Shown: positions 8,448-59,223 of the stretch, piece after piece
How the letters are laid out: every line of letters begins with the position of its first letter
Position numbering within the stretch: the first letter of the stretch is position 1
Source: Shigella phage ESh15
Sequence record: ON528725
Direction: 5' to 3' (one strand)
Length of the DNA: 64,000 nucleotides
Translations under genes and position numbers: made by a program
Notes under the pieces: generated by a model
What the model was told of the DNA's origin: nothing
Databases searched by the model: none
The model's input: the letters and a program-made list of their open reading frames with translations, nothing else

Positions 8448-8472
8448 AATTTCCTCCAAGTAGTTGATGAAT

Positions 8473-8504: not shown

Positions 8505-8505
8505 A

Positions 8506-9272: not shown

Positions 9273-9274
9273 AA

Positions 9275-9298
9275 TACCTCCCACGTTTATAGGAGGTA
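9275..9298 (-). promoter_or_regulatory. SD-sequestering hairpin in the e leader
   Basis: minus-strand uaccucc-10nt-ggaggua places the GGAGG of e in a stem; loop contains TATAAAC; same architecture as the known T4 lysozyme translational control. Confidence 0.5.
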
Positions 9299-9306
9299 TT
9301 TATTAC

Positions 9307-11165: not shown

Positions 11166-11166
11166 A

Positions 11167-11472: not shown

Positions 11473-11498
11473 AATATTCTCCTCATGTTTTAATAGGA

Positions 11499-11530
11499 CT
11501 ACTATAACATAGTCCTATAATTGTGTAAAC
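11499..11530 (-). promoter_or_regulatory. early promoter cassette
   Basis: gtaaac 11525-11530, -10 TATAGT, 9-bp inverted repeat ataggacta/tagtcctat. Confidence 0.6.
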
Positions 11531-11542
11531 AGTTTTGTGAAG

Positions 11543-12499
11543 TTATTTGAAAGGTTTTACCATATGGAAATTTTGTTTGAAACGTTTTACATAATCGTCA
11601 TGTCCTAAGCTTTGGTACATACTTACAACTTTGCTGTAGTTTTCCCAAGCGTATTCACGGAACCAGCCTGACGTGATTGAAGTACAGACCTTTTCAAGAG
11701 CCATCATAAAACTATCACGTGGATGGATTTTAAAGTCATTAGGAATCTGAGAACGTTCTAATGCTAGTACACATGATTCTTCGTATACACCGGCCAATTT
11801 GACCATTTCTGGTAATGATTCGAACTTCTCGCGTGAGGTCATGACTTCAGAACCATCTTTCATGTAAAACGTATAAGCAGGGCGGTCTGTTAGTGCAATG
11901 GCTTCGTGAATAGTATCATGATCGTATGTGTAGATGTCATCTTTAAAGAATGCGCTTTTAGAAGTGTCAAGAACCGGGTGAGCATAGTTCAATGTTTCTT
12001 TCTGGCGTTTAAGCATAATTTCAGTAAGTTCATCGTTCAGTGTAACACCTTTACCACGAAGATACTGAATATGGTTCATAGTCTTTAAAAAGAATGGATT
12101 ATTTTTCTTGAAACGATGAGACATCTTAATTGCAAGACACATCTCAGGAGTTGCCCAGTAAAACCCGTTCAAACGATCTTTAGTCAAATTTTTCTTGGCG
12201 TATTTTAAAAGGTCATAAGAAGACGTGAAATCTTCAGGAGTGAGTTCACCAACTAATTCACGGACATTAGTGATTGCCGGAACAATATATGCTTCAAAAT
12301 GAGTTTCGCGTCCATTATGGAAGCATTTGAAAACTTGGACATCAGGGTTATCTTGGTGAACATATACACCCATCATTTGATTTTTGAATGCATTCCAAGA
12401 ACCTTGGTCCGCAATAAAGTCCCAATCACTATTTTTGATAGCGCTAGAATCAATAAGGCCGTGATAGTGAAGTGCACGAGAACCAATAACTAACATCAT
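11543..12499 (-). CDS. hypothetical protein (318 aa)
   Basis: ATG ATG at 12494-12499 with GAGGA SD; N-terminal GS...DWD pattern weakly reminiscent of a nucleotidyltransferase. Confidence 0.55.
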   Translation of the reverse strand: MMLVIGSRALHYHGLIDSSAIKNSDWDFIADQGSWNAFKNQMMGVYVHQDNPDVQVFKCFHNGRETHFEAYIVPAITNVRELVGELTPEDFTSSYDLLKYAKKNLTKDRLNGFYWATPEMCLAIKMSHRFKKNNPFFLKTMNHIQYLRGKGVTLNDELTEIMLKRQKETLNYAHPVLDTSKSAFFKDDIYTYDHDTIHEAIALTDRPAYTFYMKDGSEVMTSREKFESLPEMVKLAGVYEESCVLALERSQIPNDFKIHPRDSFMMALEKVCTSITSGWFREYAWENYSKVVSMYQSLGHDDYVKRFKQNFHMVKPFK

Positions 12500-12524
12500 A
12501 ATAATTTCCTCAAATTTAGATTAC

Positions 12525-12764
12525 TTAAATTTCACGACATGCGATATTATATTCATCCCAGAGGTCATCATGTGAAGCCTCTACCAATGGAACGATTGTA
12601 CCATTTATGTCTTCATTATAAGGACAAATTGTACAGTGCGCATCTTCGAATCGGATGCCTTTGTGTTCAGATTTTTTATAACGCATATCGAATATCTTTG
12701 CAAACTTTTCACGAGTAATAGTTTTAGCAACTACTTCGGTTCCGATACTTTCGTAATAAATCAT
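12525..12764 (-). CDS. hypothetical Cys-containing small protein (79 aa)
   Basis: ATG 12762-12764 with GGAG SD; HCTICP motif. Confidence 0.45.
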   Translation of the reverse strand: MIYYESIGTEVVAKTITREKFAKIFDMRYKKSEHKGIRFEDAHCTICPYNEDINGTIVPLVEASHDDLWDEYNIACREI

Positions 12765-12790
12765 TGTGGACTCCATTTAATTTGATAGGA

Positions 12791-12822
12791 CTACTATAAC
12801 ATAGCCCTATCTTGTTGTAAAC
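12791..12822 (-). promoter_or_regulatory. early promoter cassette
   Basis: gtaaac 12817-12822; -10 TATAGT; inverted repeat with one mismatch. Confidence 0.55.
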
Positions 12823-12827
12823 TGTTT

Positions 12828-13025
12828 TTAGCAAGAATAACTAGATGATACCCAGCCTTGAACAGTAATACTATTATTTGATAACGAGATCGCGTCCTGG
12901 AGATTCAGACCTGCGTTATCTTCAATCCATAATGTAACTTCTTCGCGTTCTTCTGTTGCAATTTGGAACAGGTTTTCCAGAGCAGCTACTGCCGTACGTA
13001 CAGCACAATCTAATTCACGAGACAT
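12828..13025 (-). CDS. small protein, member 3 of tandem GWVSSSxxC family (65 aa)
   Basis: C-terminus QGWVSSSYSC; AAGGA SD junction identical in style to the two upstream paralogs. Confidence 0.5.
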   Translation of the reverse strand: MSRELDCAVRTAVAALENLFQIATEEREEVTLWIEDNAGLNLQDAISLSNNSITVQGWVSSSYSC

Positions 13026-13034
13026 ATTGTTTCC

Positions 13035-13307
13035 TTAGCAAGTGTGAGAAGATGCAACCCAACCGCCATCTTCAAGGCTCAGGTTGTAGTCGTATTGGTA
13101 AACGTCAGCCCATTCAGCATAGCCGTTTTTTGTACAACGTTCAAGATCGGCTTTAAGATGTCCTGGTGAATGATAGGTTCCACCCATACCATAAGCTGGA
13201 TACAAGTCAAATGTTGTGTTTTGTTTATTGGCAATTTCTTTGGCTGCCTCAATAGCTGCATAGATTTTTGCTACGGCTTCAGCCAGTTCGGTTTGTTCTT
13301 TAGACAT
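13035..13307 (-). CDS. small protein, member 2 of tandem GWVSSSxxC family (90 aa)
   Basis: C-terminus DGGWVASSHTC; internal YGMGGTYHSPG motif shared with member 1. Confidence 0.5.
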   Translation of the reverse strand: MSKEQTELAEAVAKIYAAIEAAKEIANKQNTTFDLYPAYGMGGTYHSPGHLKADLERCTKNGYAEWADVYQYDYNLSLEDGGWVASSHTC

Positions 13308-13316
13308 AATGATTCC

Positions 13317-13622
13317 TTAGCACAATGCAGAAGACGAAACCCAAGCACCTTCAGTAATAACGTAACCATTACCTTCACGCTTAACGTCGCCACCATTATT
13401 TTCAATTTCATTTTTCATCCACTGGGATACGATTTCACCCTTAGGATAATAAGTACGACCGCTACCATAATCACCTACAGAAAATGATACAGCATATTGG
13501 TCTGCGATCTTTGTTGCTTCTTCTTCGATACGTTCAGCTTGATTCAGAAGTTTATAAATTGCATCTGAAGCGGATTTGGCATCATTAAACTCTGGCACTT
13601 TAATTTCAATAATCTTACTCAT
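13317..13622 (-). CDS. small protein, member 1 of tandem GWVSSSxxC family (101 aa)
   Basis: C-terminus EGAWVSSSALC; internal YGSGRTYYPKG motif; AAGGA SD. Confidence 0.5.
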   Translation of the reverse strand: MSKIIEIKVPEFNDAKSASDAIYKLLNQAERIEEEATKIADQYAVSFSVGDYGSGRTYYPKGEIVSQWMKNEIENNGGDVKREGNGYVITEGAWVSSSALC

Positions 13623-13680
13623 TTTCTACATTCCTTAATAAAGTTTTCGATTGTTTCATTTTCACGTCTAGCTAGGAGTT

Positions 13681-13710
13681 CATTATAACTAATCATTTGA
13701 GAAGCGTAAA
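13681..13710 (-). promoter_or_regulatory. early promoter (-35 GTTTAC, -10 TTATAAT) for the triplet
   Basis: gtaaac 13705-13710; plus attataa 13681-13687; 17-nt spacer. Confidence 0.55.
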
Positions 13711-13720
13711 CAGCATAAAT

Positions 13721-14113
13721 TCAGTTAAGGCTTTTGCATCTTATCTCCTTAACGAATTCCATGGCTTCATTGTATTCATACTTTTTAACAGCTTCATCAT
13801 ACTGAGCTTGGGCTTTTGCGCACTGAACTTTCCATTCTCTTAATCGGGCTCTGTGATGACGGCCTTGGTGCCAATATCCTGCCCAATTAATAGGCATTAA
13901 TAAAAACGGTACAATAAGTGGTGCGACGAACATTAATGAAAATGCTGCATCAGACGATATAACTTCACTAGAATCTAAAACAGCTCCTATAATCATAAAG
14001 ATTAAAAATGCTAAAGCTAAAATAGGACCAAACAACACCTCATTAGGAATTAATTTACGTTTGTATTCGTATGCCCAGGGCTTAATTGGCATGTACAGGG
14101 TTGGCTTTGACAT
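13721..14113 (-). CDS. hypothetical membrane protein (~130 aa)
   Basis: two predicted TM helices; ATG at 14111-14113 (track start at 14143 is a TTG). Confidence 0.45.
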   Translation of the reverse strand: MSKPTLYMPIKPWAYEYKRKLIPNEVLFGPILALAFLIFMIIGAVLDSSEVISSDAAFSLMFVAPLIVPFLLMPINWAGYWHQGRHHRARLREWKVQCAKAQAQYDEAVKKYEYNEAMEFVKEIRCKSLN

Positions 14114-14684
14114 ATTCTCTACATTCCATAATAAATTGCTCAAGGATTAAATTGTTAGTGAAATTAGGACTAACAACCATAGTTTCATAAAGCGCATCAA
14201 TAGCACTTAAAGCATCAACTCTTTTAAGCAAAGGCTTGCCTTCATACATAGTTTCAGAATCTACGATTAGCGTAAAGTAATATTTTTTATTATCGACTAG
14301 AACTTCAGTATCGATATAAAACATGTTAGACCTTAAAAGCTTATCTCTAAAACCATAATAATCTTCAGAGCGTTCGCTGATATATTCCCATTCAGTGTTT
14401 AAACAACAAACAGACCATGTAGGAGCAACGAAATCAGTGAATCTAATATCATGGTCTGCAACTAGTTTAGCAATAGCTCCGATATCATGAATCATAATAC
14501 CTGGGGCTAATAAAGATTTTCTGCTATGGCTAGCCGTTTTCTCAGTAGTCTCATAAGAAGACGACCAGTACCATTTACGTCCGGTTGCAACATATCGTAA
14601 TGAATCAACTAAAGACGTAGGTGGATTTACCTTATCTCGGAACTCTTCGAACATTGAGTCAATATCATTATTTTGGTTTCGCAT
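14082..14684 (-). CDS. hypothetical protein (200 aa)
   Basis: ATG 14682-14684 with AAGGAG SD (track start at 14705 is TTG). Confidence 0.5.
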   Translation of the reverse strand: MRNQNNDIDSMFEEFRDKVNPPTSLVDSLRYVATGRKWYWSSSYETTEKTASHSRKSLLAPGIMIHDIGAIAKLVADHDIRFTDFVAPTWSVCCLNTEWEYISERSEDYYGFRDKLLRSNMFYIDTEVLVDNKKYYFTLIVDSETMYEGKPLLKRVDALSAIDALYETMVVSPNFTNNLILEQFIMECREYVKANPVHAN

Positions 14685-14703
14685 GTTAACTCCTTTATTA
14701 TCC

Positions 14704-14727
14704 AAAAAAGGAGGACCGGAGTCCTCC
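14704..14727 (-). terminator. rho-independent terminator
   Basis: minus-strand hairpin ggaggac-ucc g-guccucc followed by UUUUUU (plus A-run 14704-14709). Confidence 0.6.
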
Positions 14728-14735
14728 GTATTATT

Positions 14736-15329
14736 TTATTTCAAAGAGTTAATATATTCTTGTACATCAGCAGAAGTTGTTTCGACACCAGCTGGAGTGC
14801 CATTGAATGTTTCAACACGAGTCAGAGTGTCTTCGATATCAACCTTAGTCAGTGCAGCAATTTCGATTACATCATCGGCCGTAGAGATACCAAGGGCATT
14901 GGCTGCTCGAGTTTCACGAATGTATTCGAGTTTGATTGCCAGATTCTGACGAGCATCATCAAGTTCAACCACCTTACGAGCAATTTCAATTCGCATAGCG
15001 GCGTACCCGTCAGCTTTTGTATTAAGTTGTTCGGCTGTTCGACGATACAGAAGTCCAAGCTTAGCATGCATGGTAACATCTTGTCCTTCAGCCAGGAGCT
15101 TACGAATTTCACGTTCTTTAGAAGCGGCTTGCTTGTTCTTTTCATTAACAAGTTCGCGAATACGTTTTTCTTCATTAATAGATTTAACAGAAGCCGTTTT
15201 TAGTTCTTTGATTTGGGTAATCAACTTATCTGCGGCTGCGTTATACTGTTCTTCGACAGTCAGATTTTTAGCCATAGCAGTACCCAGTTTAGTGCGGATG
15301 AATTCAACAAGTTTCTTCAGTGTGTTCAT
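14736..15329 (-). CDS. coiled-coil protein of unknown function (~197 aa)
   Basis: ATG at 15327-15329; long heptad-like helical sequence; no catalytic motif. Confidence 0.5.
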
Positions 15330-15370
15330 ATTATTACCTTTCAATTGGTGGTTTATTATCCAACGAGAGC

Positions 15371-15400
15371 ATTATACTCTGCTCTCAAGAGTTTGTAAAT
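15371..15400 (-). promoter_or_regulatory. early promoter (-35 ATTTAC variant, -10 TATAAT in inverted repeat gagagc/gctctc)
   Basis: plus attata 15371-15376, gtaaat 15395-15400. Confidence 0.5.
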
Positions 15401-15627
15401 TATTTTTTAATCAAATTGACATAAAACTTAGCGTCTTCAGGGTGCATGCCTTCGCAGTATTCTTCAACCATGAACTTCTTAACAGCTTCATAAGGACCAC
15501 TCAGATTAAGCTCAGTTGTCCAAAACTTGGAATCTTGGGCTGAATCGATATGAACTTCAGGGTGTCGGTTGCGAATAACTTCTTCGGTGTATTCATAATC
15601 AACGACATCAATACTAACTTTAGCCAT
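15400..15627 (-). CDS. hypothetical acidic protein (75 aa)
   Basis: ATG 15625-15627 with GAGGAA SD. Confidence 0.45.
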   Translation of the reverse strand: MAKVSIDVVDYEYTEEVIRNRHPEVHIDSAQDSKFWTTELNLSGPYEAVKKFMVEEYCEGMHPEDAKFYVNLIKK

Positions 15628-15652
15628 TTTGTTTTCCTCTTGATTTGATGTG

Positions 15653-15685
15653 ATTACTATAACATAAACTTACTTAGATGTAAAT
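15653..15685 (-). promoter_or_regulatory. early promoter cassette (-35 ATTTAC variant)
   Basis: plus actata 15655-15660, gtaaat 15680-15685. Confidence 0.45.
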
Positions 15686-15838
15686 TATTTCAACGTCACC
15701 TTTAGCTGCTTTATAACCTTCAGCCCAAGATATAACAGAGTTTTTATCTGAGGATTCAAATTCAGGCATTGGACTTTCACCAATATTCACACAGTATGTT
15801 TCTTCATTTTCATCGAACCAAATAATTAAAGTAGTCAT
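15674..15838 (-). CDS. hypothetical small acidic protein (54 aa), below track cutoff
   Basis: ATG 15836-15838 with GGAG SD; leader almost identical to that of the 89-aa gene at 52192-52461. Confidence 0.4.
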   Translation of the reverse strand: MTTLIIWFDENEETYCVNIGESPMPEFESSDKNSVISWAEGYKAAKGDVEIIYI

Positions 15839-15865
15839 TTTGTTTACTCCACTGTAGTTGATAAG

Positions 15866-15900
15866 TCTATAGTATCACCATCCTTGGTGCTTGTACATCA
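15866..15900 (-). promoter_or_regulatory. early promoter cassette (variant -35)
   Basis: -10 TACTAT from plus tatagtatc 15868-15876; leader 15841-15877 matches 52468-52503 with one mismatch. Confidence 0.4.
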
Positions 15901-15906
15901 TTATTT

Positions 15907-16212
15907 TTAATTTTTCCAACTTAACAACTTGTAGTGTCCTTCATTCATACGTGGTTTATCCCAAGAAATACTAATATATGATTCGCTGTCAATAGAAGTC
16001 GCCGGGTTTTTCTCTACCGTAAGACCTTCACTTTCTAACCATTCAATAGTGTTTGCGCATAAATCTGAAGAACACCTCATCGGAAACTGGCAAGATTTTT
16101 CACCTTTAGCTGCAGTGTTATACATCTTTTCTAAAATACGCTTTTGCACGTTTTTAAAAATAGTTTCAGCAGATTCTTCAGATTTTTTATTCAGTTCAGT
16201 GTAAAGACTCAT
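15907..16212 (-). CDS. hypothetical protein (101 aa)
   Basis: ATG 16210-16212 with GAGGAG SD. Confidence 0.45.
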   Translation of the reverse strand: MSLYTELNKKSEESAETIFKNVQKRILEKMYNTAAKGEKSCQFPMRCSSDLCANTIEWLESEGLTVEKNPATSIDSESYISISWDKPRMNEGHYKLLSWKN

Positions 16213-16242
16213 AATATTCTCCTCATGTTTTGATAGGTCTAT

Positions 16243-16269
16243 AATAACACATCTATGGAAGAAGTAAAC
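16243..16269 (-). promoter_or_regulatory. early promoter cassette
   Basis: gtaaac 16264-16269; -10 from plus tctataataaca. Confidence 0.5.
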
Positions 16270-16292
16270 AACTTTTTCAGTAAGTTATAGAC

Positions 16293-16316
16293 CCCCTAAA
16301 GGGGACCGAAGTCCCC
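16293..16316 (-). terminator. GC-rich hairpin after the 16322-16942 gene (weak terminator or stabiliser)
   Basis: ggggac-cgaa-gucccc hairpin immediately after the stop; only a short U tract. Confidence 0.35.
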
Positions 16317-16321
16317 ATTCT

Positions 16322-16942
16322 TTACTTACGAGTTTTTGCATACTGAGCAGCGTCAGCAGCCAAACGACCTGCCTGACGAAGTTTTTCTTTAATCTCATCA
16401 TGAAGTGGTTGAGTATACTTCAAACCTTCGATAGTCAAATAAAGACGATAAAGGTCTGGGGTATCAAGGTTGTTGATATGTTGGCCATTACGAAGAATAT
16501 TAAATTCACGAACGAGTGAAGATGTATCGGATTCAATATCACGAACAAGCGAAGATAGTTGTTTATATTTTTTTTCCAGGCTAGAAGTATCAAACTTAAG
16601 AGCAGGAGCTTTAGGAGTTGCTTTTACTTCCGGCTTAGGCTCAGGTTTTGCTTTAGGGGTCGTAGGTTTAGGAATGGTAGGAGCAGGTTTTACTTTAGGC
16701 GAACCAGATTTAGCAGAAACACCACCACTAACAATATCTTTGAATGCTTTAGAAGCTCTGTAATATTCTTTTTGGCTGGAAGTGTCGATACCGTACATGG
16801 CTTGAACGTTTTTGAAAAACTCTGTACTAGTTTTTGTACCAGAAATAGCATCGTAAGCAGCTTGCCATTTCTCTTTTGTCATACGTACACCGGCTTCGGT
16901 GATTACTTCCGTTTCGGCTAAAAATTCATTAAAAGTATACAT
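16322..16942 (-). CDS. IP-like protein with capsid-targeting-like N-terminus and Pro/Lys-rich linker
   Basis: 206 aa; N-terminus MYTFNEFLAE; central KPAPTIPKPTTPKAKPEPKPEVKATPKAP low-complexity linker. Confidence 0.55.
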   Translation of the reverse strand: MYTFNEFLAETEVITEAGVRMTKEKWQAAYDAISGTKTSTEFFKNVQAMYGIDTSSQKEYYRASKAFKDIVSGGVSAKSGSPKVKPAPTIPKPTTPKAKPEPKPEVKATPKAPALKFDTSSLEKKYKQLSSLVRDIESDTSSLVREFNILRNGQHINNLDTPDLYRLYLTIEGLKYTQPLHDEIKEKLRQAGRLAADAAQYAKTRK

Positions 16943-16987
16943 TGATGGTCCTTAGAAAGTAGGTTTATTGTTTACTATATTTATACA

Positions 16988-17016
16988 AAAAAGCCCCAAC
17001 CTTTCGGAAGGGGCTA
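16988..17016 (-). terminator. rho-independent terminator at the distal end of the tRNA/stable-RNA region
   Basis: minus-strand hairpin agcccc-12nt-ggggcu followed by UUUUUU; near-identical to the terminator at 1106-1133. Confidence 0.6.
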
Positions 17017-17058
17017 TATACCTTGTCGGGGTTTCCACCTACTAAGGCAAGTGTTTGT

Positions 17059-17150
17059 ACGAAACGCCGGGACTCGAACCCGGTTATTAAGCAGTTGACG
17101 CTACTCAATATTTTTAAAAGGCCATATCTCGACCATATCCGAACGTTCCG
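17059..17150 (-). ncRNA. candidate stable RNA with tRNA-like T-arm and acceptor stem (not a canonical tRNA)
   Basis: CCGGG-TTCGAGT-CCCGG T-arm and a 7-bp acceptor pairing CGGAACG/CGTTTCG, but 92 nt with no canonical D or anticodon arm. Confidence 0.3.
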
Positions 17151-17318
17151 TCAAAAACGCTACTCGGCTTACGGCAAAGATATTTCCTCGAATCGATAAT
17201 TCGGTGCGCCGTTTCTGCTGTGATGTAAGGGGATATTAACGAATCATAAAGATTTATTAAGACCAGTCCTTACTCAGGGAACATCAGTCCGACGTCTTGC
17301 CGGTAGCGACCCGGCTTC

Positions 17319-17663
17319 TTATTTTGGCATATCATCAATTTGTTCTCGACGCCGACGCCATAGATTAATCGCTTCATTGGCACATTCTGCGTTTGGTATA
17401 TGACGGCAATAATATAATGATTCGCGTTTCTGGAACCGATGTTGCAATGGAATTTCGTTTAAAAGGTCTTTACGGTCAAAGTATTCAAAACTAGTTAACC
17501 CAGAACGGTTTTTAAGAAACTTCCAATGTCCGAATTCATTTTGAAAATAAACGTAATCAGCGTGTTGATATAACGAATTAATCAACCGGTCGGAAATAAC
17601 TGTATCCTGTTCGTTAAAATAAAACGTTAAATCATGAACTACCAAATAAATATTGCCTTTCAT
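17319..17663 (-). CDS. hypothetical protein (114 aa) within the tRNA region
   Basis: ATG 17661-17663 with GAGGA SD; the track start at 17711 would overlap tRNA-Arg. Confidence 0.45.
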   Translation of the reverse strand: MKGNIYLVVHDLTFYFNEQDTVISDRLINSLYQHADYVYFQNEFGHWKFLKNRSGLTSFEYFDRKDLLNEIPLQHRFQKRESLYYCRHIPNAECANEAINLWRRRREQIDDMPK

Positions 17664-17681
17664 ATTTTCCTCACTTGAAGT

Positions 17682-17758
<77 letters not shown>

Positions 17759-17761
17759 GAT

Positions 17762-17836
17762 TGGTGACCCTGGCTGGTTTCGATCCAGCTACCTATCAGT
17801 TATGAGCTGACAGCTCTCCCATTGAGCTACAGGGCC
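17762..17836 (-). tRNA. tRNA with CAT anticodon (Ile-CAU/lysidine type or Met)
   Basis: hand-folded cloverleaf: acceptor GGCCCTG/CAGGGTC, D-stem GCTC/GAGC, anticodon loop CTCATAA, T-arm GCTGG-ATCGAAA-CCAGC, encoded CCA; 3 nt from tRNA-Arg. Confidence 0.7.
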
Positions 17837-17894
17837 TAAATAACTTTCTATTATGAAAGGCACTTTATAGCACCTTTGGTAATAGAGGGTATGA

Positions 17895-17923
17895 ATTAAT
17901 AATAACACATAATTCTTAAAGCA
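17895..17923 (-). promoter_or_regulatory. candidate MotA-dependent middle promoter upstream of the tRNA genes
   Basis: minus-strand TGCTTTA MotA-box-like element (plus taaagca 17917-17923) ~12 nt upstream of an AT-rich -10. Confidence 0.35.
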
Positions 17924-18431
17924 AATCAATCATTTTAACAGTCGGCAAAACAATTTCTTCTTCAATATAAGCGAATTCAACACGTTCAACTACACGCAAG
18001 AAATCGTAATCATAGTATTCAGAAGCATAGCCAAGAATATCAATAAGTCCTTGAGATATCTCATCGCCTTTCACAAAGAACAGGTCGAATACGCGGGCTT
18101 CGTCTTCTTCAGATTTATCACCAAGGTCTACTTCGATACCAAAGACCTTTTTAATAAATTCCGGTTGGAGTTGGTCTGAGAACAGTCCTTCAACCAAGTA
18201 TTCATAGATTAAAAGCGAGCAATCACTGAATGGTGTATTGCCACAGTAACGTTCAGCTTTAGTGCTGGAATGTCGGCTCTTAAATTTCTTCAAGAGGTAT
18301 TTGAACTGTTGGAGCTCATGCTCTCCCACTTCAAACAATGTTTTGGTTTTATAGTTGTCACCATCATTTTCATAGGTAGTGACATCAATTACGTAGCCCT
18401 TAGGAATTGTACTGCCTAAACAAATATTCAT
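17916..18431 (-). CDS. hypothetical acidic protein (171 aa)
   Basis: ATG 18429-18431. Confidence 0.5.
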   Translation of the reverse strand: MNICLGSTIPKGYVIDVTTYENDGDNYKTKTLFEVGEHELQQFKYLLKKFKSRHSSTKAERYCGNTPFSDCSLLIYEYLVEGLFSDQLQPEFIKKVFGIEVDLGDKSEEDEARVFDLFFVKGDEISQGLIDILGYASEYYDYDFLRVVERVEFAYIEEEIVLPTVKMIDLL

Positions 18432-18435
18432 TTAC

Positions 18436-18726
18436 TCACCGTACCATATTAATGTAATTATATTCAATGCAACGTAATTTCAAAGGATTCTTGAAAATAT
18501 CATATTCAAGAGGGCCTTTTTCTGTTTCAATAAAGAAATCAAAGTTCACACTATTAAATTTGCGGTCTTCCCAAAGTAATTTAACTTGCGAAGATGAACG
18601 GTCGATATAAACCTTTTCAACCTCAAAGTTAGTCAGAATACCGTAGTCATCGACTAGTGCTTTAGCTGCACGTTGATCGCTTTCATATCCATTCTCAACG
18701 GATTTTACCTTAGCATAAAGAATCAT
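18436..18726 (-). CDS. hypothetical protein (96 aa)
   Basis: ATG 18724-18726. Confidence 0.45.
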   Translation of the reverse strand: MILYAKVKSVENGYESDQRAAKALVDDYGILTNFEVEKVYIDRSSSQVKLLWEDRKFNSVNFDFFIETEKGPLEYDIFKNPLKLRCIEYNYINMVR

Positions 18727-19085
18727 GAGTGTTCCACCATTTCAAAGGTATGAGCATCAACAATATGATACCAGTCAAAATTTTCTTCTGCTTTTTTATA
18801 AATTTCGCGAAGAGCCTCAACAGTTTTTCCTGTAGCAACAAGGTCGTTAATACCGCCAAGAGGATAACAGTCGTAACCGGCAAACAGAAGGAAATTAATA
18901 GTTTCTGTAGGGGCCGGATGCAGTGTACCATTGTCATCGACTACTTCAAAGAACATATAACCAGGCGATTTAGATTTAATCCAAGCCCATGCTTGAGCTG
19001 CTGAATCAAATGGTCTGCGTATCAAACGACAATCAGGGTCTTTAGAAGGATTTGCTTCAAAATCCGCATATACATGATATTTCAT
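18723..19085 (-). CDS. hypothetical protein (~120 aa)
   Basis: ATG 19083-19085 with AAGGTGA SD (track start at 19103 is TTG). Confidence 0.45.
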   Translation of the reverse strand: MKYHVYADFEANPSKDPDCRLIRRPFDSAAQAWAWIKSKSPGYMFFEVVDDNGTLHPAPTETINFLLFAGYDCYPLGGINDLVATGKTVEALREIYKKAEENFDWYHIVDAHTFEMVEHS

Positions 19086-19086
19086 T

Positions 19087-19272
19087 TTACTCACCTTTTG
19101 CAATTTTATCCATAACGATAGCGATTAAGCCGATTAGAAATGCTACTACCAATGAGATAGAATTTTCTGTTGTTGTCAGTAGTCCACAAATGAATCCTAC
19201 AAACATCGAAAAACTAAAAGCCATTGAAGCAATTACTACAGCAACATTACGAATCAGTTCAGCGCGTTTCAT
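19087..19272 (-). CDS. hypothetical small membrane protein (61 aa)
   Basis: single TM helix; ATG 19270-19272 with GAGGAG SD. Confidence 0.4.
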   Translation of the reverse strand: MKRAELIRNVAVVIASMAFSFSMFVGFICGLLTTTENSISLVVAFLIGLIAIVMDKIAKGE

Positions 19273-19298
19273 TTTATTCTCCTCAGTAGTTGATAGGG

Positions 19299-19330
19299 TA
19301 ATAGTATCACTACCCTATCTAAAAGTAAAC
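19299..19330 (-). promoter_or_regulatory. early promoter cassette
   Basis: gtaaac 19325-19330; -10 TACTAT; 9-bp inverted repeat gatagggta/taccctatc with compensatory changes relative to other copies. Confidence 0.6.
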
Positions 19331-19341
19331 GGTTTTATAAA

Positions 19342-19650
19342 CTATTTTATTCCGCGTGATGCAATCGTATTCTGCCGTTTAACGCCAGTTTGTTTAAAGT
19401 TATGATTGTCGAGTTGATCGGTACGAGCAACTCCGAATGATGATTTAATCTTAGCTTTAGATCCTTTAGTTATAGAAATAAACATCTCGGGAGCCCCTTT
19501 CTTAAAGTCCGAAGCAATTACTTCAACACCGTTCTTAGCAAGTGACCTCAGAATTGCTTCCGCATACTCATCATCAAGACCCGCTTGAGTATGAATAACG
19601 AATGTCTTTGGTGCAGCTGCTTCACAGATAAATTCTTTAAATGTTTTCAT
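19342..19650 (-). CDS. internal-protein (IP) candidate with capsid-targeting sequence
   Basis: 102 aa; N-terminus MKTFKEFICE; basic. Confidence 0.6.
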   Translation of the reverse strand: MKTFKEFICEAAAPKTFVIHTQAGLDDEYAEAILRSLAKNGVEVIASDFKKGAPEMFISITKGSKAKIKSSFGVARTDQLDNHNFKQTGVKRQNTIASRGIK

Positions 19651-19680
19651 TTTATTTTCCTAATTAATTTTGATAGGACT

Positions 19681-19710
19681 ACTATAACATAGTCCTATCA
19701 GCATGTAAAC
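19681..19710 (-). promoter_or_regulatory. early promoter cassette
   Basis: gtaaac 19705-19710; -10 TATAGT; 11-bp inverted repeat. Confidence 0.6.
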
Positions 19711-19713
19711 TAC

Positions 19714-20001
19714 TTACAGAAGAGTTTTTGCAATAATTTTAAGCTGAGCTACAGAAATATGCTTAGCTTTAAACAGTGCAGTCTCTTCAGCTGGAGAGAT
19801 AACAATAGTAGCGCCATCTTTCTTAGCAGACCATCCATCACCTAAGTAAACAGTACCTTTTACTTCTTCGCCGTCAACCAGACTAATCATTGGTTTACCC
19901 TCACGTCCTTTATTTGCTTTAATAACTTCGGAAGTAAGGGTTGCTTCAGTCAGAGTAGAAACGTTAGCAACAGGTGATATAAATTCTTTATAGGTTTTCA
20001 T
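19714..20001 (-). CDS. internal-protein (IP) candidate, ipI-position and IPI-sized
   Basis: 95 aa; N-terminus MKTYKEFISP; adjacent to 57B as ipI is in T4. Confidence 0.6.
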   Translation of the reverse strand: MKTYKEFISPVANVSTLTEATLTSEVIKANKGREGKPMISLVDGEEVKGTVYLGDGWSAKKDGATIVISPAEETALFKAKHISVAQLKIIAKTLL

Positions 20002-20032
20002 TTTATTTCCTTGAGGTCGTTTATTTGATAGG

Positions 20033-20065
20033 ATGATAGTATCACACCGTCATCCTTATGTAAAC
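20033..20065 (-). promoter_or_regulatory. early promoter cassette
   Basis: gtaaac 20060-20065; -10 TACTAT; 7-bp inverted repeat aggatga/tcatcct. Confidence 0.55.
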
Positions 20066-20078
20066 TGTTTTGTGAAAA

Positions 20079-31779: not shown

Positions 31780-32776
31780 TTCAAGTGTTATCTATCGTGC
31801 AATAGTTACATCAAAATTTAGAACAGAGAAAATGCTGAATTTTTATAATTCAGTCGGGGATGGAGATGATAAGAACTCCATTTATATTACGTTTGGACGT
31901 TCAGAGCCTTGGGCGTCAAATGAAAATGAGGTGGGCTTCGCCCCACCTTATCCTACAGATTCTGTTCTTGGTGTTACTGATATGTGGACCCATATGATGG
32001 GCACCGTTAAAGTTTTACCTTCAATGTTAGATTCTGTTATTCCTAGACGTGATTGGGGAGATGTGCGATATCCGGACCCTTACACGTTTAGAATTAACGA
32101 TATAGTCGCGTGTAATACTGCTCCGTACAACGCGACAGAAGTTGGAGCCGGTTGGTTAATTTACCGTTGTTTAGACGTCCCTGACGTAGGGCTCTGTTCA
32201 ATAGAATCTTTAGATAATAAAGATGAATGTCTTAAATTAGGTGGTAAATGGACCCCGTCTGTTCGTTCTATGTCTCCTCCTGAAGGCAGAGGCGATGCTA
32301 ATGGGGTTATCGAAACCGGTGATGGATATATTTGGGAATACCTTTATGAGATTCCTGCCGATGTGTCAATTAACCGTTGCACTAATGAATATCTTGTAGT
32401 TCCATGGCCGGAAGAAATTAAAGAAGACCCTACGCGTTGGGGATACGAAAATAACTTAACTTGGCAACAAGATGACTATGGCTTGATTTACCGTGTTAAA
32501 GCCAATACGATGCGGTTTAAAGCATATTTTGATTCTGTTTATTTCCCTGAGGCAGCTTTGCCTGGTAACAAGGGTTTTAGACAGATATCAATTATCACAA
32601 ACCCATTAGAAGCTAAGAAAAATCCAAATGACCCTAATGTTAAAGCAGAAAAGGATTATTACGACCCTAGAGACCTGCAACGTCATTCCGGTGAAATGAT
32701 TTATATGGAAAACCGACCACCTGTTATTATGGCAATGGACCAAACAGAAGAAATTAACATTTTGTTTATGTTTTAA
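31772..32776 (+). CDS. 8: gp8 baseplate wedge
   Basis: 334 aa as T4 gp8; synteny. Confidence 0.9.
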   Translation: MNDSSVIYRAIVTSKFRTEKMLNFYNSVGDGDDKNSIYITFGRSEPWASNENEVGFAPPYPTDSVLGVTDMWTHMMGTVKVLPSMLDSVIPRRDWGDVRYPDPYTFRINDIVACNTAPYNATEVGAGWLIYRCLDVPDVGLCSIESLDNKDECLKLGGKWTPSVRSMSPPEGRGDANGVIETGDGYIWEYLYEIPADVSINRCTNEYLVVPWPEEIKEDPTRWGYENNLTWQQDDYGLIYRVKANTMRFKAYFDSVYFPEAALPGNKGFRQISIITNPLEAKKNPNDPNVKAEKDYYDPRDLQRHSGEMIYMENRPPVIMAMDQTEEINILFMF

Positions 32777-32779
32777 TTA

Positions 32780-32804
32780 GGGAGCCTTCGGGCTCCCATT
32801 TTTG
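32780..32804 (+). terminator. rho-independent terminator after gene 8
   Basis: gggagcc-ttcg-ggctccc followed by ATTTTTG. Confidence 0.7.
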
Positions 32805-32808
32805 TATC

Positions 32809-32816
32809 TATAAATA
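32809..32816 (+). promoter_or_regulatory. late promoter TATAAATA for gene 9
   Basis: exact TATAAATA 33 nt upstream of the gene 9 ATG. Confidence 0.7.
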
Positions 32817-50570: not shown

Positions 50571-52139
50571 ATGACTACTATCAAAACTAAAGCTCAGCTC
50601 GTAGACAAATGGAAAGAACTGCTGGAAGGTGAAGGCCTGCCGGAAATCGCTAATAGCAAGCAGGCTATTATCGCTAAAATCTTCGAAAACCAGGAAAAAG
50701 ATTTCGAAGTATCCCCTGAATATAAAGACGAGAAAATCGCTCAGGCATTTGGTTCTTTCTTGACCGAAGCTGAAATTGGTGGTGACCACGGTTATAATGC
50801 TCAGAACATCGCAGCAGGTCAAACCTCTGGTGCAGTAACCCAAATTGGGCCGGCAGTTATGGGTATGGTTCGTCGTGCTATTCCTAATCTGATTGCTTTT
50901 GATATTTGTGGTGTTCAGCCTATGAACAGCCCGACCGGTCAGGTATTTGCTCTCCGTGCAGTATATGGTAAAGACCCTATCGCTGCTGGCGCTAAAGAAG
51001 CTTTCCATCCGATGTATGCTCCGGATGCAATGTTCTCTGGTCAGGGTGCTGCTAAGAAATTCCCAGCTCTGGCTGCTAGCACACAAACCACAGTAGGTGA
51101 TATCTATACTCACTTCTTCCAGGAAACTGGTACTGTATATCTGCAAGCTTCTGTTCAAGTAACAATCGATGCCGGTGCAACTGATGCTGCTAAATTAGAT
51201 GCCGAAGTTAAGAAACAAATGGAAGCTGGTGCACTGGTAGAAATCGCTGAAGGTATGGCTACTTCTATCGCTGAACTCCAGGAAGGTTTCAACGGTTCTA
51301 CCGATAACCCATGGAATGAAATGGGCTTCCGTATCGATAAACAAGTTATCGAAGCTAAATCTCGCCAGCTGAAAGCTGCTTACTCTATCGAATTAGCACA
51401 AGACCTCCGTGCAGTACACGGTATGGATGCTGATGCTGAACTGAGCGGTATTCTGGCTACAGAAATTATGCTAGAAATCAACCGTGAAGTTGTTGATTGG
51501 ATTAACTACTCAGCACAGGTTGGTAAATCTGGTATGACCCTGACTCCGGGTTCTAAAGCCGGTGTATTTGACTTCCAGGACCCGATTGATATCCGTGGTG
51601 CTCGTTGGGCCGGTGAAAGCTTTAAATCTCTGTTGTTCCAGATTGATAAAGAAGCAGTTGAAATTGCTCGTCAAACCGGTCGTGGTGAAGGTAACTTCAT
51701 TATCGCTTCCCGTAACGTAGTTAACGTACTGGCTTCAGTTGATACTGGTATTTCTTACGCTGCACAGGGTCTGGCTTCTGGTTTTAATACCGACACTACT
51801 AAGTCTGTATTTGCCGGTGTACTTGGTGGTAAATACCGCGTATACATCGACCAGTATGCTAAACAGGATTACTTCACCGTTGGTTACAAAGGCGCTAACG
51901 AAATGGATGCAGGTATCTACTATGCTCCTTACGTTGCACTTACCCCACTGCGTGGTTCCGATCCTAAGAACTTCCAGCCGGTAATGGGCTTTAAAACTCG
52001 TTACGGTATCGGTGTTAACCCGTTTGCTGAAAGTTCCCTGCAGGCTCCAGGTGCTCGCATCCAGTCCGGTATGCCGTCTATCCTGAACAGCCTTGGTAAG
52101 AACGCTTACTTCCGCCGTGTATATGTAAAAGGCATCTAA
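50571..52139 (+). CDS. 23: major capsid protein gp23
   Basis: 522 aa; nearly identical to T4 gp23 over long stretches as recalled. Confidence 0.98.
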   Translation: MTTIKTKAQLVDKWKELLEGEGLPEIANSKQAIIAKIFENQEKDFEVSPEYKDEKIAQAFGSFLTEAEIGGDHGYNAQNIAAGQTSGAVTQIGPAVMGMVRRAIPNLIAFDICGVQPMNSPTGQVFALRAVYGKDPIAAGAKEAFHPMYAPDAMFSGQGAAKKFPALAASTQTTVGDIYTHFFQETGTVYLQASVQVTIDAGATDAAKLDAEVKKQMEAGALVEIAEGMATSIAELQEGFNGSTDNPWNEMGFRIDKQVIEAKSRQLKAAYSIELAQDLRAVHGMDADAELSGILATEIMLEINREVVDWINYSAQVGKSGMTLTPGSKAGVFDFQDPIDIRGARWAGESFKSLLFQIDKEAVEIARQTGRGEGNFIIASRNVVNVLASVDTGISYAAQGLASGFNTDTTKSVFAGVLGGKYRVYIDQYAKQDYFTVGYKGANEMDAGIYYAPYVALTPLRGSDPKNFQPVMGFKTRYGIGVNPFAESSLQAPGARIQSGMPSILNSLGKNAYFRRVYVKGI

Positions 52140-52163
52140 TCTTAATTGATTAAATCTTATTTT

Positions 52164-52195
52164 GGGAGACTTCGGTCTCCCATTTTTGGTTTTAT
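52164..52195 (+). terminator. rho-independent terminator after gene 23
   Basis: gggagac-ttcg-gtctccc followed by ATTTTTGGTTTT. Confidence 0.8.
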
Positions 52196-52461
52196 TTCTG
52201 TGCAATTTTGATGTAAGTTTTCAAAATATTTTGCCAATTAGGCATACCTTCTTGGACATATGCCGGAGAACCGTCTTTGTTTTTGAATGATGCAAGTTTA
52301 TCAGTGGCCCAATAACCTTTAGCTCGAGCTTCAGAATCAACTTTCATCCATACTTTGTTGAAGGCATTACCATTAACTTTTGCACCGTATTTTTCTACTA
52401 ACTTAACGGCTTCAGCTTCCAGAACTTTTAAAGTATCTCTTAAGAAACGTGCTTTAGTCAT
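52192..52461 (-). CDS. hypothetical basic protein (89 aa) between genes 23 and 24
   Basis: minus-strand ORF with GAGGAG SD and its own early-promoter cassette; occupies the locus where T4 carries segD. Confidence 0.5.
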   Translation of the reverse strand: MTKARFLRDTLKVLEAEAVKLVEKYGAKVNGNAFNKVWMKVDSEARAKGYWATDKLASFKNKDGSPAYVQEGMPNWQNILKTYIKIAQK

Positions 52462-52488
52462 TTTGTTTACTCCTCTGTAGTTGATAAG

Positions 52489-52521
52489 TCTATAGTATCA
52501 CATACCAAATACGTTGTAAAC
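52489..52521 (-). promoter_or_regulatory. early promoter cassette inside the late region
   Basis: gtaaac 52516-52521, -10 TACTAT; leader 52468-52503 matches 15841-15877 with one mismatch. Confidence 0.55.
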
Positions 52522-52527
52522 AATCTT

Positions 52528-52535
52528 TATAAATA
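52528..52535 (+). promoter_or_regulatory. late promoter TATAAATA for gene 24
   Basis: exact TATAAATA 27 nt upstream of the gene 24 ATG. Confidence 0.7.
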
Positions 52536-52561
52536 ATCTATATCACATAAGGAAAAATGCA

Positions 52562-53842
52562 ATGAGTAAAATCCAAAAATTATTGCGTGAATCTACAACG
52601 TCTACTAGCAACTCAATCGGTCGCCCAAATCTCGTTGCTTTGACTCGCGCTACGACTAAATTAATATATTCTGACATTGTGGCAACACAAAGAACTAACC
52701 AACCTGTTGCTGCTTTTTATGGTATTAAATATCTTAACCCAGACAACGAATTAACATTTAAAACTGGTGCTACTTATGCAGGTGAAGCTGGATATGTAGA
52801 CCGAGAAAAAATTACTGAGCTCACAGAAGAATCAAAAGCCACACTAAATAAAGGTGATTTTTTCAAATATAATAATATCGTCTATAAAGTGTTAGAAGAT
52901 ACACCGTTTGCAGATATTCAGGAAAGTGATCTAGAATTAGCTCTTCAGATTGCGGTCGTTCATTTAAAGGTACGGTTATTTTCGGATGCAGCGGTAACAA
53001 GCAAATTTGAAAGCTCTGGTAGCGAAATTTCTGATGCAAGATTCCAGATTAATAAATGGCAAACTTCAGTCAAATCTCGTAAACTTAAAACCGGCCTCAC
53101 GGTTGAATTAGCGCAAGATTTAGAAGCGAATGGATTTGATGCCCCTAACTTCTTAGAAGATTTGCTTGCTACTGAAATGGCTGATGAAATTAATAAAGAT
53201 ATTCTTCAATCTTTAATTACTGTATCGAAACGTTATAAAGTTACTGGAATTACTGACACCGGATTTATTGACTTGAGCTATGCGTCTGCTCCGGAAGCAG
53301 GTCGTTCGTTATATCGAATGGTGTGTGAAATGGTATCACACATTCAAAAAGAGTCAACTTATACTGCAACGTTTTGTGTAGCTTCAGCTCGTGCAGCTGC
53401 TATTCTTGCTGCTTCGGGTTGGTTAAAACATAAGCCGGAAGATGATAAGTATCTTTCACAAAATGCTTATGGATTCTTGGCAAATGGATTACCTCTTTAC
53501 TGCGATACCAACAGTCCGTTAGATTATGTTATTGTGGGTGTTGTAGAAAATATCGGCGAAAAAGAGATTGTAGGGTCCATCTTTTATGCTCCATACACTG
53601 AAGGAATGGATTTAGACGACCCGGAACATGTTGGTGCATTTAAAGTTGTAGTTGATCCGGAAAGCTTACAACCGTCTATAGGTTTATTGGTTAGATATGC
53701 TTTATCAGCAAATCCTTACACAGTAGCAAAAGATGAAAAAGAAGCGAGAGTAATTGATGGCGGGGACATGGATAAAATGGCAGGACGTTCAGACTTGTCT
53801 GTTTTACTCGGTGTTAAATTGCCTAAAATTATTATAGATTAA
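52562..53842 (+). CDS. 24: capsid vertex protein gp24
   Basis: 426 aa, paralog of gp23; synteny. Confidence 0.95.
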   Translation: MSKIQKLLRESTTSTSNSIGRPNLVALTRATTKLIYSDIVATQRTNQPVAAFYGIKYLNPDNELTFKTGATYAGEAGYVDREKITELTEESKATLNKGDFFKYNNIVYKVLEDTPFADIQESDLELALQIAVVHLKVRLFSDAAVTSKFESSGSEISDARFQINKWQTSVKSRKLKTGLTVELAQDLEANGFDAPNFLEDLLATEMADEINKDILQSLITVSKRYKVTGITDTGFIDLSYASAPEAGRSLYRMVCEMVSHIQKESTYTATFCVASARAAAILAASGWLKHKPEDDKYLSQNAYGFLANGLPLYCDTNSPLDYVIVGVVENIGEKEIVGSIFYAPYTEGMDLDDPEHVGAFKVVVDPESLQPSIGLLVRYALSANPYTVAKDEKEARVIDGGDMDKMAGRSDLSVLLGVKLPKIIID

Positions 53843-53871: not shown

Positions 53872-54870
53872 TTATGATACTAATTCAATCCATGCAGGAC
53901 GCAGAACATCTTGCACCATTCGGACTAATTCTTTCTTAACAAGATTCGGATTATCAGATGATGTTAATACAATACCTTCACGAGAAGTTTCTTCCAGAAT
54001 ATCTTGAACAGTCAATCCCATCACTTTGCCAAAATCTTTCGGCGTTACAGTCCCAATCTTAGAAATAACATTATTAACACGATTTAATGTAACATAACAA
54101 GCTAGAACATCAAGCAAGTTTTTGTCAATTTCGGTTAATGGAACCTGAGTTTTAATAGGCTTATCAGACTTTTTCTTTTCACTAAATTTAGAGTTCTTGC
54201 ACTTAATAGCTACACGAGTACCGTTTGGCAGCCATTTAGGGAAACAAGGCTTCAGAACATAACCTTCCGCAGTATTATCACCAATAACATTAGCATCAAA
54301 TACGCAATTATTTGCTTCGACAAGGTCTTCCGATGCCGTAGCGTTATAAGCGGCTAAAACGGAATCAAGGTCATTTGGAATCATGATAAGAGCATCAAAT
54401 GTTCCACGGCCAAGCATTGGTGCCATTTTAAAACCGAATTCATTACAGAAATCTTGCATTTCGTAATCGGTCAAATACGTATTATCACCACTTTCTGTAT
54501 TGATAATGATATCGAACACATAAAAATCTTTTTCACCGTAGTCAACACCTTTCTGGATTCCACCACCAGCGAATTCACCGAATACTTGATATGATACGGC
54601 TCGAGCTGTGTACATGAATTCCTGAACGGCTTTAATAGCTTTATCATACTTCTTGAGTACGATTTCATAACCATAAAAATCTTCTGCTGGAAGAATAGGG
54701 CCTGTGCGCTTGGCGCATGTGACGTTGTCACGTTCAATTATTAACGAGAAGTTAGTCCCATGGATTTTCTCACGTGCTACCCAAACACCAGTAGTCAAAC
54801 CATTAGTGTAGAGTTTTTCAATAAACTTAGAGTTGTAGTGGTTTTCAAGACTGCTGTATTTCTTAAACAT
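53872..54870 (-). CDS. rnlB: RNA ligase 2
   Basis: 332 aa; ligase motif I KIHGTN; N-terminus [21 protein letters not shown] and C-terminus RPAWIELVS match T4 Rnl2 as recalled. Confidence 0.95.
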
Positions 54871-54989: not shown

Positions 54990-55241
54990 TTAGAACTTGA
55001 TTTCTATCCAATGCCCATCACGTTGGTCATGATTAATTTTGTACTGAAAGCCATTATCACGAAGCCATTGACCTACTTGCTCGGTGATAGTTAAATCATT
55101 CTTTGATGGATAGTACGTGAATTGTGTCTGACCTTTGTCAGCGGCTTTCTCTGCCATCACAGAGAAGTTAGTAATAAAATCACTCAACAAATTAGCTTTA
55201 GTGGCCAGAGCCCTTTCTCTTAATTCCTGTGCAAAACTCAT
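54990..55241 (-). CDS. 24.2: hypothetical protein 24.2 (83 aa)
   Basis: ATG 55239-55241; synteny with T4 24.2. Confidence 0.55.
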   Translation of the reverse strand: MSFAQELRERALATKANLLSDFITNFSVMAEKAADKGQTQFTYYPSKNDLTITEQVGQWLRDNGFQYKINHDQRDGHWIEIKF

Positions 55242-58932: not shown

Positions 58933-59166
58933 ATGGTACTTGAATTTAAACAATTTTTATACGAAGCATCTATTGACGAATTCATGGGTAAAATTGCTAA
59001 TTGTCATACCTTAGAAGGGCTTGAAGAATTGGAAGCTTATTATAAGAAACGTATAAAAGAAACGGAATTAAAAGATACAGATGATATTTCTGTCAGGGAT
59101 GCCTTAGCAGGTAAGCGTGCCGAACTTGAAGGCGACGATGATGAGGATGAGGAAGAAGACTTCTAA
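58933..59166 (+). CDS. uvsW.1: UvsW.1 small acidic protein
   Basis: 77 aa with poly-acidic C-terminus; directly after uvsW. Confidence 0.7.
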   Translation: MVLEFKQFLYEASIDEFMGKIANCHTLEGLEELEAYYKKRIKETELKDTDDISVRDALAGKRAELEGDDDEDEEEDF

Positions 59167-59170
59167 TTAA

Positions 59171-59198
59171 AAAAAGGCCCGACCTTTTTGGAAGGGCC
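59171..59198 (-). terminator. rho-independent terminator after uvsY.-2
   Basis: minus-strand ggccc-13nt-gggcc hairpin followed by UUUUUUU. Confidence 0.5.
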
Positions 59199-59223
59199 AA
59201 AACCATAGGCAAAAAAGGTAACA

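Follow-up and report, generated by a model that had tools for sequence, protein, structure and literature searches.

A conserved early-promoter gene between genes 23 and 24 of RB69-like T-even phages, and the exchangeable slot that it appears to occupy

Why does a small leftward gene with a promoter of its own lie between gene 23 and gene 24 of a T-even phage, and how did it come to be there? The question arises in the window analysed here, a stretch of 64,000 nucleotides of Shigella phage ESh15 (ON528725), which belongs to Mosigvirus, the RB69-like T-even phages. An earlier note, made from the sequence alone, described a basic 89-aa ORF on the minus strand, flanked by the terminator of gene 23 and the late promoter of gene 24, in the slot where T4 carries segD, and proposed that this gene had been placed into the late region together with an early-promoter cassette. 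The description is accurate: the ORF occupies 52192-52461, and segD of T4 also lies on the minus strand between genes 23 and 24. The origin of the gene reads differently, as set out below. The features of the locus, and the leader elsewhere in the window that resembles its own, are the following.

50571-52139, plus strand: gp23
52163-52192, plus strand: intrinsic terminator of gene 23, GGGAGAC-TTCG-GTCTCCC followed by a T-run; right end of the slot
52192-52461, minus strand: 89-aa ORF (PHROG 6003), stop codon included, starting with ATG
52462-52485, minus strand: predicted 5' UTR of 24 nt, AUCAACUACAGAGGAGUAAACAAA, its start placed by the distance to the -10 element
52475-52470, minus strand: Shine-Dalgarno sequence (SD) GAGGAG, 8 nt from the ATG; in LF82-3 the allele replacement has its left junction here
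52497-52492, minus strand: -10 hexamer TACTAT, with a TG one base upstream (extended -10)
52521-52515, minus strand: -35 element GTTTACA of a T4-type early promoter, kept across genera
52528-52535, plus strand: gene 24 late promoter, TATAAATA; left end of the slot
52562-53842, plus strand: gp24, with its ATG at 52562
53872-54870, minus strand: rnlB, beyond gp24
15836-15878, minus strand: partner leader, preceding a 54-aa ORF at 15674-15838 (phrog_5461)

phiEC1, APCEc01, NBG1 and many others share the 501 bases around the ORF at 99 % identity. The encoded protein is basic, with a pI of 9.8 and a net charge of +7.5 (14 K and 3 R against 9 D/E). Early minus-strand genes within the late region are part of the normal T4 architecture, and rnlB, 24.2 and 24.3 adjoin the locus. 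The block formed by rnlB and an 83-aa ORF at 54990-55241 (phrog_2416) is the counterpart of T4 24.3/24.2/rnlB; upstream of it lies a strict early-promoter match at 55359-55330 on the minus strand.

The promoter of the 89-aa gene, GTTTACA-N17-TG-a-TACTAT with a spacer of 17 nt between -35 and -10, matches the T4-type sigma-70 early consensus, which consists of a -35 element GTTTAC(A), a spacer of approximately 17 nt and a -10 element TAYWAT (PMC4122927, PMC1524935). The -10 hexamer ends 30 nt 5' of the ATG. We searched the window with the strict pattern [GA]TTTAC-N18-TAYWRT, using a first-order Markov control, and obtained 14 matches against 0.4 expected. All 14 lie on the minus strand, and only two fall in the late-gene part of the window, the 52.5-kb site and the match at 55359-55330. 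The sequence directly upstream of the 52.5-kb early promoter is the gene 24 late promoter; the two stand back to back, the late promoter overlapping the A/T-rich upstream region of the early one, and the late promoter is aligned and kept beside the early promoter across the compared loci. The -10 element is retained as TA(C/T)TAT in JS98, phage 04086 and the loci L006 and L008, as is the -35 element, with a varying spacer, and the SD and ATG are conserved among the compared loci. An early promoter and a leader of its own, which the earlier note had assigned to the gene, are thus present in the sequence. Three other kinds of element were considered and rejected. A middle promoter would need a TGCTT Mot box, which is absent upstream of the ORF. 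For a late promoter, the minus strand offers only a 7/8 match, TATAAAGA, opposite the gene 24 late promoter, and no exact one. As to a structured RNA, folding of the mRNA gave a z-score of -2.6 and showed nothing distinctive besides the terminator hairpin.

The gene 23 hairpin (52163-52182, plus strand), followed by TTTTTGGTTT, is the sole intrinsic-terminator-like site at the locus, and it is invariant in the four loci compared (window, JS98, L006 and L008). On the minus strand, AAAATAAG and no U-run comes after the hairpin, which is not a canonical terminator for the 89-aa ORF. The hairpin belongs to a family (D8) with a second member in the window, at 32762-32811 (GGGAGCC-TTCG-GGCTCCC, against GGGAGAC-TTCG-GTCTCCC within 52146-52195). 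A further hairpin family, D6, occurs at 1101-1134, 16983-17016 and 59166-59199. Together with the promoters, such terminator hairpin families could supply short homologies for recombination.

It was proposed that the leader of the gene matches, with one mismatch, that of the small ORF at 15.8 kb. In substance this is correct: 52459-52501 and 15836-15878, both on the minus strand, are identical at 42 of 43 positions, and no equal match was obtained in 100 shuffles; the coordinates originally given for the match, 52468-52503 and 15841-15877, were slightly out of register. The identity ends at 52501 and runs on through ATG ACT A. The similarity as a whole extends to 47 nt at 98 % (family D3), from the -10 region through the first codons. 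The 15.8-kb ORF and its leader have approximately 86 % DNA identity to a Tequatrovirus stretch, annotated in T2 as 'hypothetical protein', e.8.

This likeness has to be seen against the whole family of such units. The window contains approximately 13 related promoter-leader units, namely families D1-D3 at 0.5-20 kb and the unit at 52.5 kb. Most of the 14 strict promoter matches precede related leaders of the form (C/T)TATCAA..GGAG..ATG, and four cassettes form a subfamily with the common leader ATCAACTAC..GGAG. Related units, 77-84 % identical over 60-70 nt, also precede early genes in Tequatrovirus, Klebsiella and other T-even phages, for instance in front of ip9 of RB15. The 42/43 pair is the closest pair in a cassette family and not a private link between two genes. 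The cassette nature of promoter and leader is supported by this comparison, and the family is otherwise concentrated in the hyperplastic region, at 0.5-20 kb.

Two observations on the hyperplastic region were made in passing. Most of its cassettes (584-20071, minus strand) contain a perfect 8-bp inverted repeat, TAGGACTA..TAGTCCTA, which brackets the -10 hexamer, for example at 600-651, 11485-11536, 12777-12828 and 19665-19716. The position of this repeat is unlike that of the stem-loop in PeSL (promoter-early stem-loop) cassettes, which lies upstream of the -35 element, and the 52.5-kb cassette does not contain the 8-bp palindrome. The stretch at 15380-16230, with the e.8-region ORF and the partner leader, differs by indels between close Mosigvirus relatives: in APCEc01, mar005P1 and JK45 the 851-nt query spans approximately 1040 nt, and other relatives match only part of it, which is typical hyperplastic plasticity.

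A leader of this kind could mean that, in this particular phage, the gene and its early-promoter cassette were recently transferred from the hyperplastic early region to the late region. The near-identity with the 15.8-kb leader and the membership of the promoter in the 0.5-20 kb family agree with such a recent insertion, as does the corresponding slot of T2, which is empty and without an early promoter. The distribution of the gene, however, makes this scarcely tenable. In a tblastn search we found 119 phage records with the gene at 90 % aa identity or more and 119 others below 60 %, and 241 places in 239 records in total; neither these matching genomes nor the rest of the window contain a second copy of the ORF. 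The annotation 'hypothetical protein' stands at exactly this locus in approximately 120 Mosigvirus records, which hold the same gene at 90 % identity or more. In every T4-type locus for which the flanks were read (NBG1, JS98, 04086, mogra, L006/L007, L008, L013, LF82-3 and RB69), gp23 and gp24 flank the gene, which lies on the strand opposite to theirs. The synteny of promoter, ORF and terminator extends over Mosigvirus, Dhakavirus and related phages from metagenomes. Since the same locus is occupied in Mosigvirus, Dhakavirus and metagenomic T4-type contigs, the gene is not a recent insertion, and since the locus is shared at only 30-70 % protein identity, its occupancy predates the split of the genera. 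The earlier note had itself named conservation of the gene at this locus among close relatives as the outcome that would speak against its reading, and the comparison of the 23-24 interval found precisely this.

The gene has been annotated before, in two pieces. RB69ORF188c and RB69ORF189c of the RB69 reference are the same gene at the same locus, and the identity is 96-100 % in the listed Mosigvirus records. The RB69 copy is split by a +1 and a -1 indel with clustered substitutions, while the copy in the window is intact. In the RB69 sequence (L016, NC_004928; 5292-5532), approximately 8 substitutions fall within 25 nt besides the two indels. In mogra (L004, 1501-1769), a 1-nt deletion in an A-run frameshifts the gene. 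These frameshifts are either real pseudogenes or sequencing errors; if they are real, the gene is dispensable in the laboratory. Given the disrupted RB69 reference copy, we consider the gene probably dispensable. Its near-universal retention in Mosigvirus and Dhakavirus argues that it is useful in nature and not freely lost. A literature search for RB69ORF188c, RB69ORF189c and phrog_6003 found nothing.

It is also conceivable that the selected product of the interval is an RNA, either an antisense ('anti-late') transcript against gene 23 or a transcriptional insulator between genes 23 and 24, and that the ORF is incidental. Promoter and hairpin are indeed better conserved than the ORF. No canonical minus-strand terminator follows the ORF, so that the transcript could enter gene 23 in antisense; read-through is possible because the hairpin is without a U-run on the minus strand. 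However, the ORF behaves as a real protein-coding gene. It matches PHROG 6003 with E = 2.9e-45, residues 1-89 against profile positions 1-90 of 90. In comparisons that were not saturated, dN/dS is 0.11-0.14, which corresponds to purifying selection. In the family alignment F6, L11, L14, L21, G26, N30-G31-N32-A33 and N35 are invariant, as are A45, W51, G64, Q70 and I79. The AlphaFold2 model is confident (pLDDT 90.8), with helices at 3-25, 31-48 and 76-88 and a β-hairpin at 56-70 in an α-α-β-β-α arrangement. Together with the conserved SD and ATG and with protein homologues in unrelated phages without gene 23 nearby, this makes an RNA product very unlikely, although an antisense side effect of the transcript is possible.

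The family is small. A profile search of 1.84 billion representative proteins returned 11 matches, limited to this family. Three of these (P0018, P0020 and P0022) are long repeat proteins that we judged to be spurious, and P0021 looks like a chimeric assembly with a JS98-type fragment. Sensitive sequence and structure searches produced no known fold or function. Pfam gave only DUF4859, below threshold and in 2 of 11 family members; NCBIfam, PADLOC and a sequence-profile search of the PDB gave no match. Foldseek returned nothing significant from the PDB (E ≥ 0.37) and a single significant match from BFVD, an 88-aa, 32 %-identical protein that is probably the homologue in phage ABPH49. For anti-defence and defence families in particular, PADLOC, Pfam, NCBIfam and the solved structures gave nothing above threshold. 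We also asked whether the ORF is a remnant or domain of a homing endonuclease and rejected this, as hhalign against T4 SegD gave a probability of 1.9 % and Pfam no GIY-YIG domain.

Relatives were found in phages only. A scan of bacterial and archaeal genomes contained no relative of the protein, while IMG/VR yielded six loci at 32-35 % identity on contigs of 155-172 kb, one of the six coinciding with the JS98 coordinates. Three homologues, at 32-36 % identity to the window protein, lie in other genomic contexts. Acinetobacter phage ABPH49 (Vequintavirinae) has one among small hypothetical ORFs. On contig L011 the homologue is one of several small ORFs in a row, among them one for a T7 gp0.6-like protein, and on contig L012 it adjoins λ-J-type tail genes. 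Because of these homologues, it is the protein and not the position that is conserved. A phage-only family that is spread across unrelated virulent phages and has no structural relatives makes an inexpensive candidate for host-takeover and anti-defence screens.

With genes 23 and 24 as its neighbours, the ORF lies within the cluster of head genes, which raises the possibility that the protein is related to the head, as a packaged internal protein or an accessory of capsid assembly. The gp21 prohead protease cuts at an L/I-x-E site, and an L-V-E-K motif (residues 21-24) that resembles such a site is nearly invariant in the T4-type members. A very weak PHROG match to an internal virion protein family was also seen (E = 0.13), but it is not significant. 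T4 internal proteins carry an N-terminal capsid-targeting sequence of the MKTYQEF..E type that is cleaved by gp21, whereas the N-terminus of the 89-aa protein reads MTKARFLRDTLK, without a sequence of this type. The LVE motif falls within a helix of the model, and homologues outside the T4 type do not have this motif. The gene is on the opposite strand, with an early promoter and without an exact late-promoter match on its own strand. A role in the head is therefore hard to credit. Elsewhere in the window (6712-8787 and 19620-20001, minus strand), the starts of seven genes have in common a repeated 5' end of 31-47 nt (families D4/D5) that encodes MKTYQEFI...; these starts resemble the T4 capsid-targeting sequence and presumably belong to internal-protein-type gene arrays.

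While the gene is conserved in Mosigvirus and Dhakavirus, the content of the 23-24 interval is not the same in all T-even phages. T4 and approximately 50 other records hold segD in this slot. A short spacer takes its place in T2, in most Tequatroviruses and in Klebsiella phages such as JD18. In T2 the spacer keeps the late promoter and the terminator and has no early promoter; compared with this empty spacer, promoter and gene are present together in the window. The ORF itself comes in two deeply divergent alleles: the slot contains a type-A ORF in the window, a type-B ORF in JS98, and a type-B ORF with a SegD-like endonuclease in LF82-3.

LF82-3 (L010, 2994-3990) shows how these contents are replaced. 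It is a Mosigvirus, with 95.6 % and 97.4 % identity to the window on the two sides of the slot and a gp24 that is 100 % identical. Its allele, however, is 93 % identical to the JS98 protein and only 33 % to that of the window. The replacement begins exactly in the SD GAGGAG. At the other end, the sequence becomes similar to the window again near the terminator hairpin and stays so into gene 23, with a different short spacer between the hairpin and the gene 23 stop; this right junction is approximate. Downstream of the allele, on the same strand, lies a SegD-like GIY-YIG endonuclease that is 57 % identical to T4 SegD, and a hypothetical protein with a homing endonuclease is likewise annotated in LF82-4, LF82-16, AV114 and JK45. 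The converse arrangement is found in L006. Here a JS98-like backbone (gp24 94 % identical, gene 24 duplicated) contains a window-like allele, with 62 % identity to the window protein and 30 % to JS98. The identity matrices of gp24 and of the ORF allele are accordingly discordant. Because allele and backbone are mismatched in LF82-3 and L006, the alleles move between backbones, with junctions in or near conserved regulatory sequences. Exchange of the slot content between lineages, which a cassette reading implies, is thus seen at this locus. We also noted that gene 24 varies in copy number. JS98 (L002), L006 and L013 have tandem copies, 24a and 24b, which in JS98 are 57 % identical; the window, L008, LF82-3 and phage 04086 (listed as Dhakavirus) have a single gene 24.

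The endonucleases suggest a further explanation, in which SegD-like enzymes have the ORF as their target, immunity determinant or co-mobile passenger, and the divergent alleles are kept by gene conversion (marker exclusion) and not by the function of the protein. That segD occupies the slot in T4 fits this, as does the endonuclease directly 3' of the type-B allele in LF82-3, LF82-4, LF82-16, AV114 and JK45. The resemblance of the LF82-3 enzyme to SegD, and the closely similar DNA on both sides of the replaced tract, also speak for it. On the other hand, JS98, most carriers of type B and all carriers of type A that were examined are without an endonuclease, and so is L006 with its type-A-like allele on a JS98-like backbone. 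The family is present in non-T4 phages, and its protein has no sequence relation to SegD. Homing may explain some of the transfers, but not why the gene exists, and we consider it an improbable account of the locus as a whole.

When would the gene be expressed? T4 offers a guide, since an early-type promoter, TTTACA-N17-TATTAT, lies directly upstream of segD (L005, NC_000866; 7234-7300, minus strand). Measured from the late promoter of gene 24, it stands where the window has the promoter of the 89-aa gene (52492-52521). The supplements of a 2022 omics study of T4 (PMC9697503) class segD as early-RNA/middle-protein and list SegD peptide intensities. According to a 2010 review, no segD promoter could be identified (PMC2988022); despite this, the early-type promoter in front of segD offers an explanation for its early-RNA class. 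Early expression of the 89-aa gene is plausible, because segD at the homologous slot is classed as early RNA and the promoter position is shared. The alignment of the LF82-3 endonuclease with T4 SegD as annotated begins at residue 4 of the latter, and for this reason the second ATG of segD, 11 nt after GGAG, may be the true start.

Taken together, these results suggest to us, as a likely explanation, that the gene is a conserved and probably dispensable accessory early gene of the RB69/JS98 T-even branch that resides in a small exchangeable slot. To judge by the sequence comparisons, the slot would extend from the terminator of gene 23 to the late promoter of gene 24. In this model, unmodified host RNA polymerase would transcribe the gene leftwards in the first minutes of infection, as with T4 segD. 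The transcript would stop at the gene 23 hairpin or leak past it, and may continue in antisense into gene 23. The mRNA would give rise to a 10-kDa basic three-helix/β-hairpin protein. Alleles would be swapped by recombination in the SD or promoter on one side and in the terminator or the 3' end of gene 23 on the other, and a SegD-like homing endonuclease would sometimes carry alleles along.

As to function, the gene most likely encodes a non-essential early accessory protein of the host-interaction kind. A role of this kind fits the early promoter, the small size and basic charge of the protein, its patchy, phage-only spread, its rapid divergence and the swapping of its alleles. That this protein targets a host macromolecule, in host takeover or counter-defence, is a guess that we offer tentatively and would sooner doubt than adopt. 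A broader reading, on balance unlikely, regards the 23-24 interval as a miniature hyperplastic slot, in which genera trade the two divergent alleles of a phage-only protein without a detectable structural relative, probably of host-interaction or counter-defence function, through recombination in SD/promoter and terminator, sometimes driven by a SegD-like homing endonuclease. Which allele a phage carries would, if this were true, influence its host range or its evasion of defences.

The 89-aa gene is not a new kind of element. It is already known as an uncharacterised early 'novel ORF' of RB69-like phages, annotated in hundreds of GenBank records and collected in PHROG 6003. The early promoters that precede the 'novel ORFs' of RB69 (Nolan et al. 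2006, PMC1524935) are of the same kind as its promoter. Its counterpart in Dhakavirus, JS98 orf173 together with its relatives, has the same slot, orientation, promoter position and terminator, and a length of 88-90 aa. The two proteins have residues in common that include F6, L11, L14, L21, N30-G31-N32-A33, N35, W51 and Q70, but they are only 31-36 % identical. JS98 orf173 thus represents a second allele class, which is also found on Mosigvirus backbones (LF82-3). T4 segD shares the intergenic slot, the minus orientation and a similar downstream hairpin; its product, a free-standing GIY-YIG homing endonuclease, is unrelated to the 89-aa protein.

The closest parallel in organisation is provided by the PeSL cassettes. 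Their consensus, TTTACW-N17-TAYWAT followed by an SD and ATG (Arbiol et al. 2010, PMC2839356; Comeau et al. 2014, PMC4122927), fits the unit of the 89-aa gene. There are differences as well. The 52.5-kb unit has no stem-loop upstream of the -35 element; among inverted repeats of at least 6 nt, the interval 52440-52600 contains none but a CTATAG palindrome that overlaps the -10 element. A canonical PeSL is therefore ruled out, as the stem-loop that defines it is absent. The cassette is also single and not a tandem pair, and it is located in the conserved structural region, where PeSLs are infrequent (PMC2839356, PMC4122927). The likeness lies in promoter, SD and start codon as a repeated unit (families D1-D3 in the window) and in the placement of this unit where close relatives exchange genes (LF82-3, T2 and T4), with junctions in regulatory sequence. 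The 23-24 slot thereby provides a clean natural case of allele and gene replacement with regulatory-sequence junctions in the T-even structural core, and movement of alleles with junctions in or near such sequences is the behaviour that was proposed for PeSL-type cassettes.
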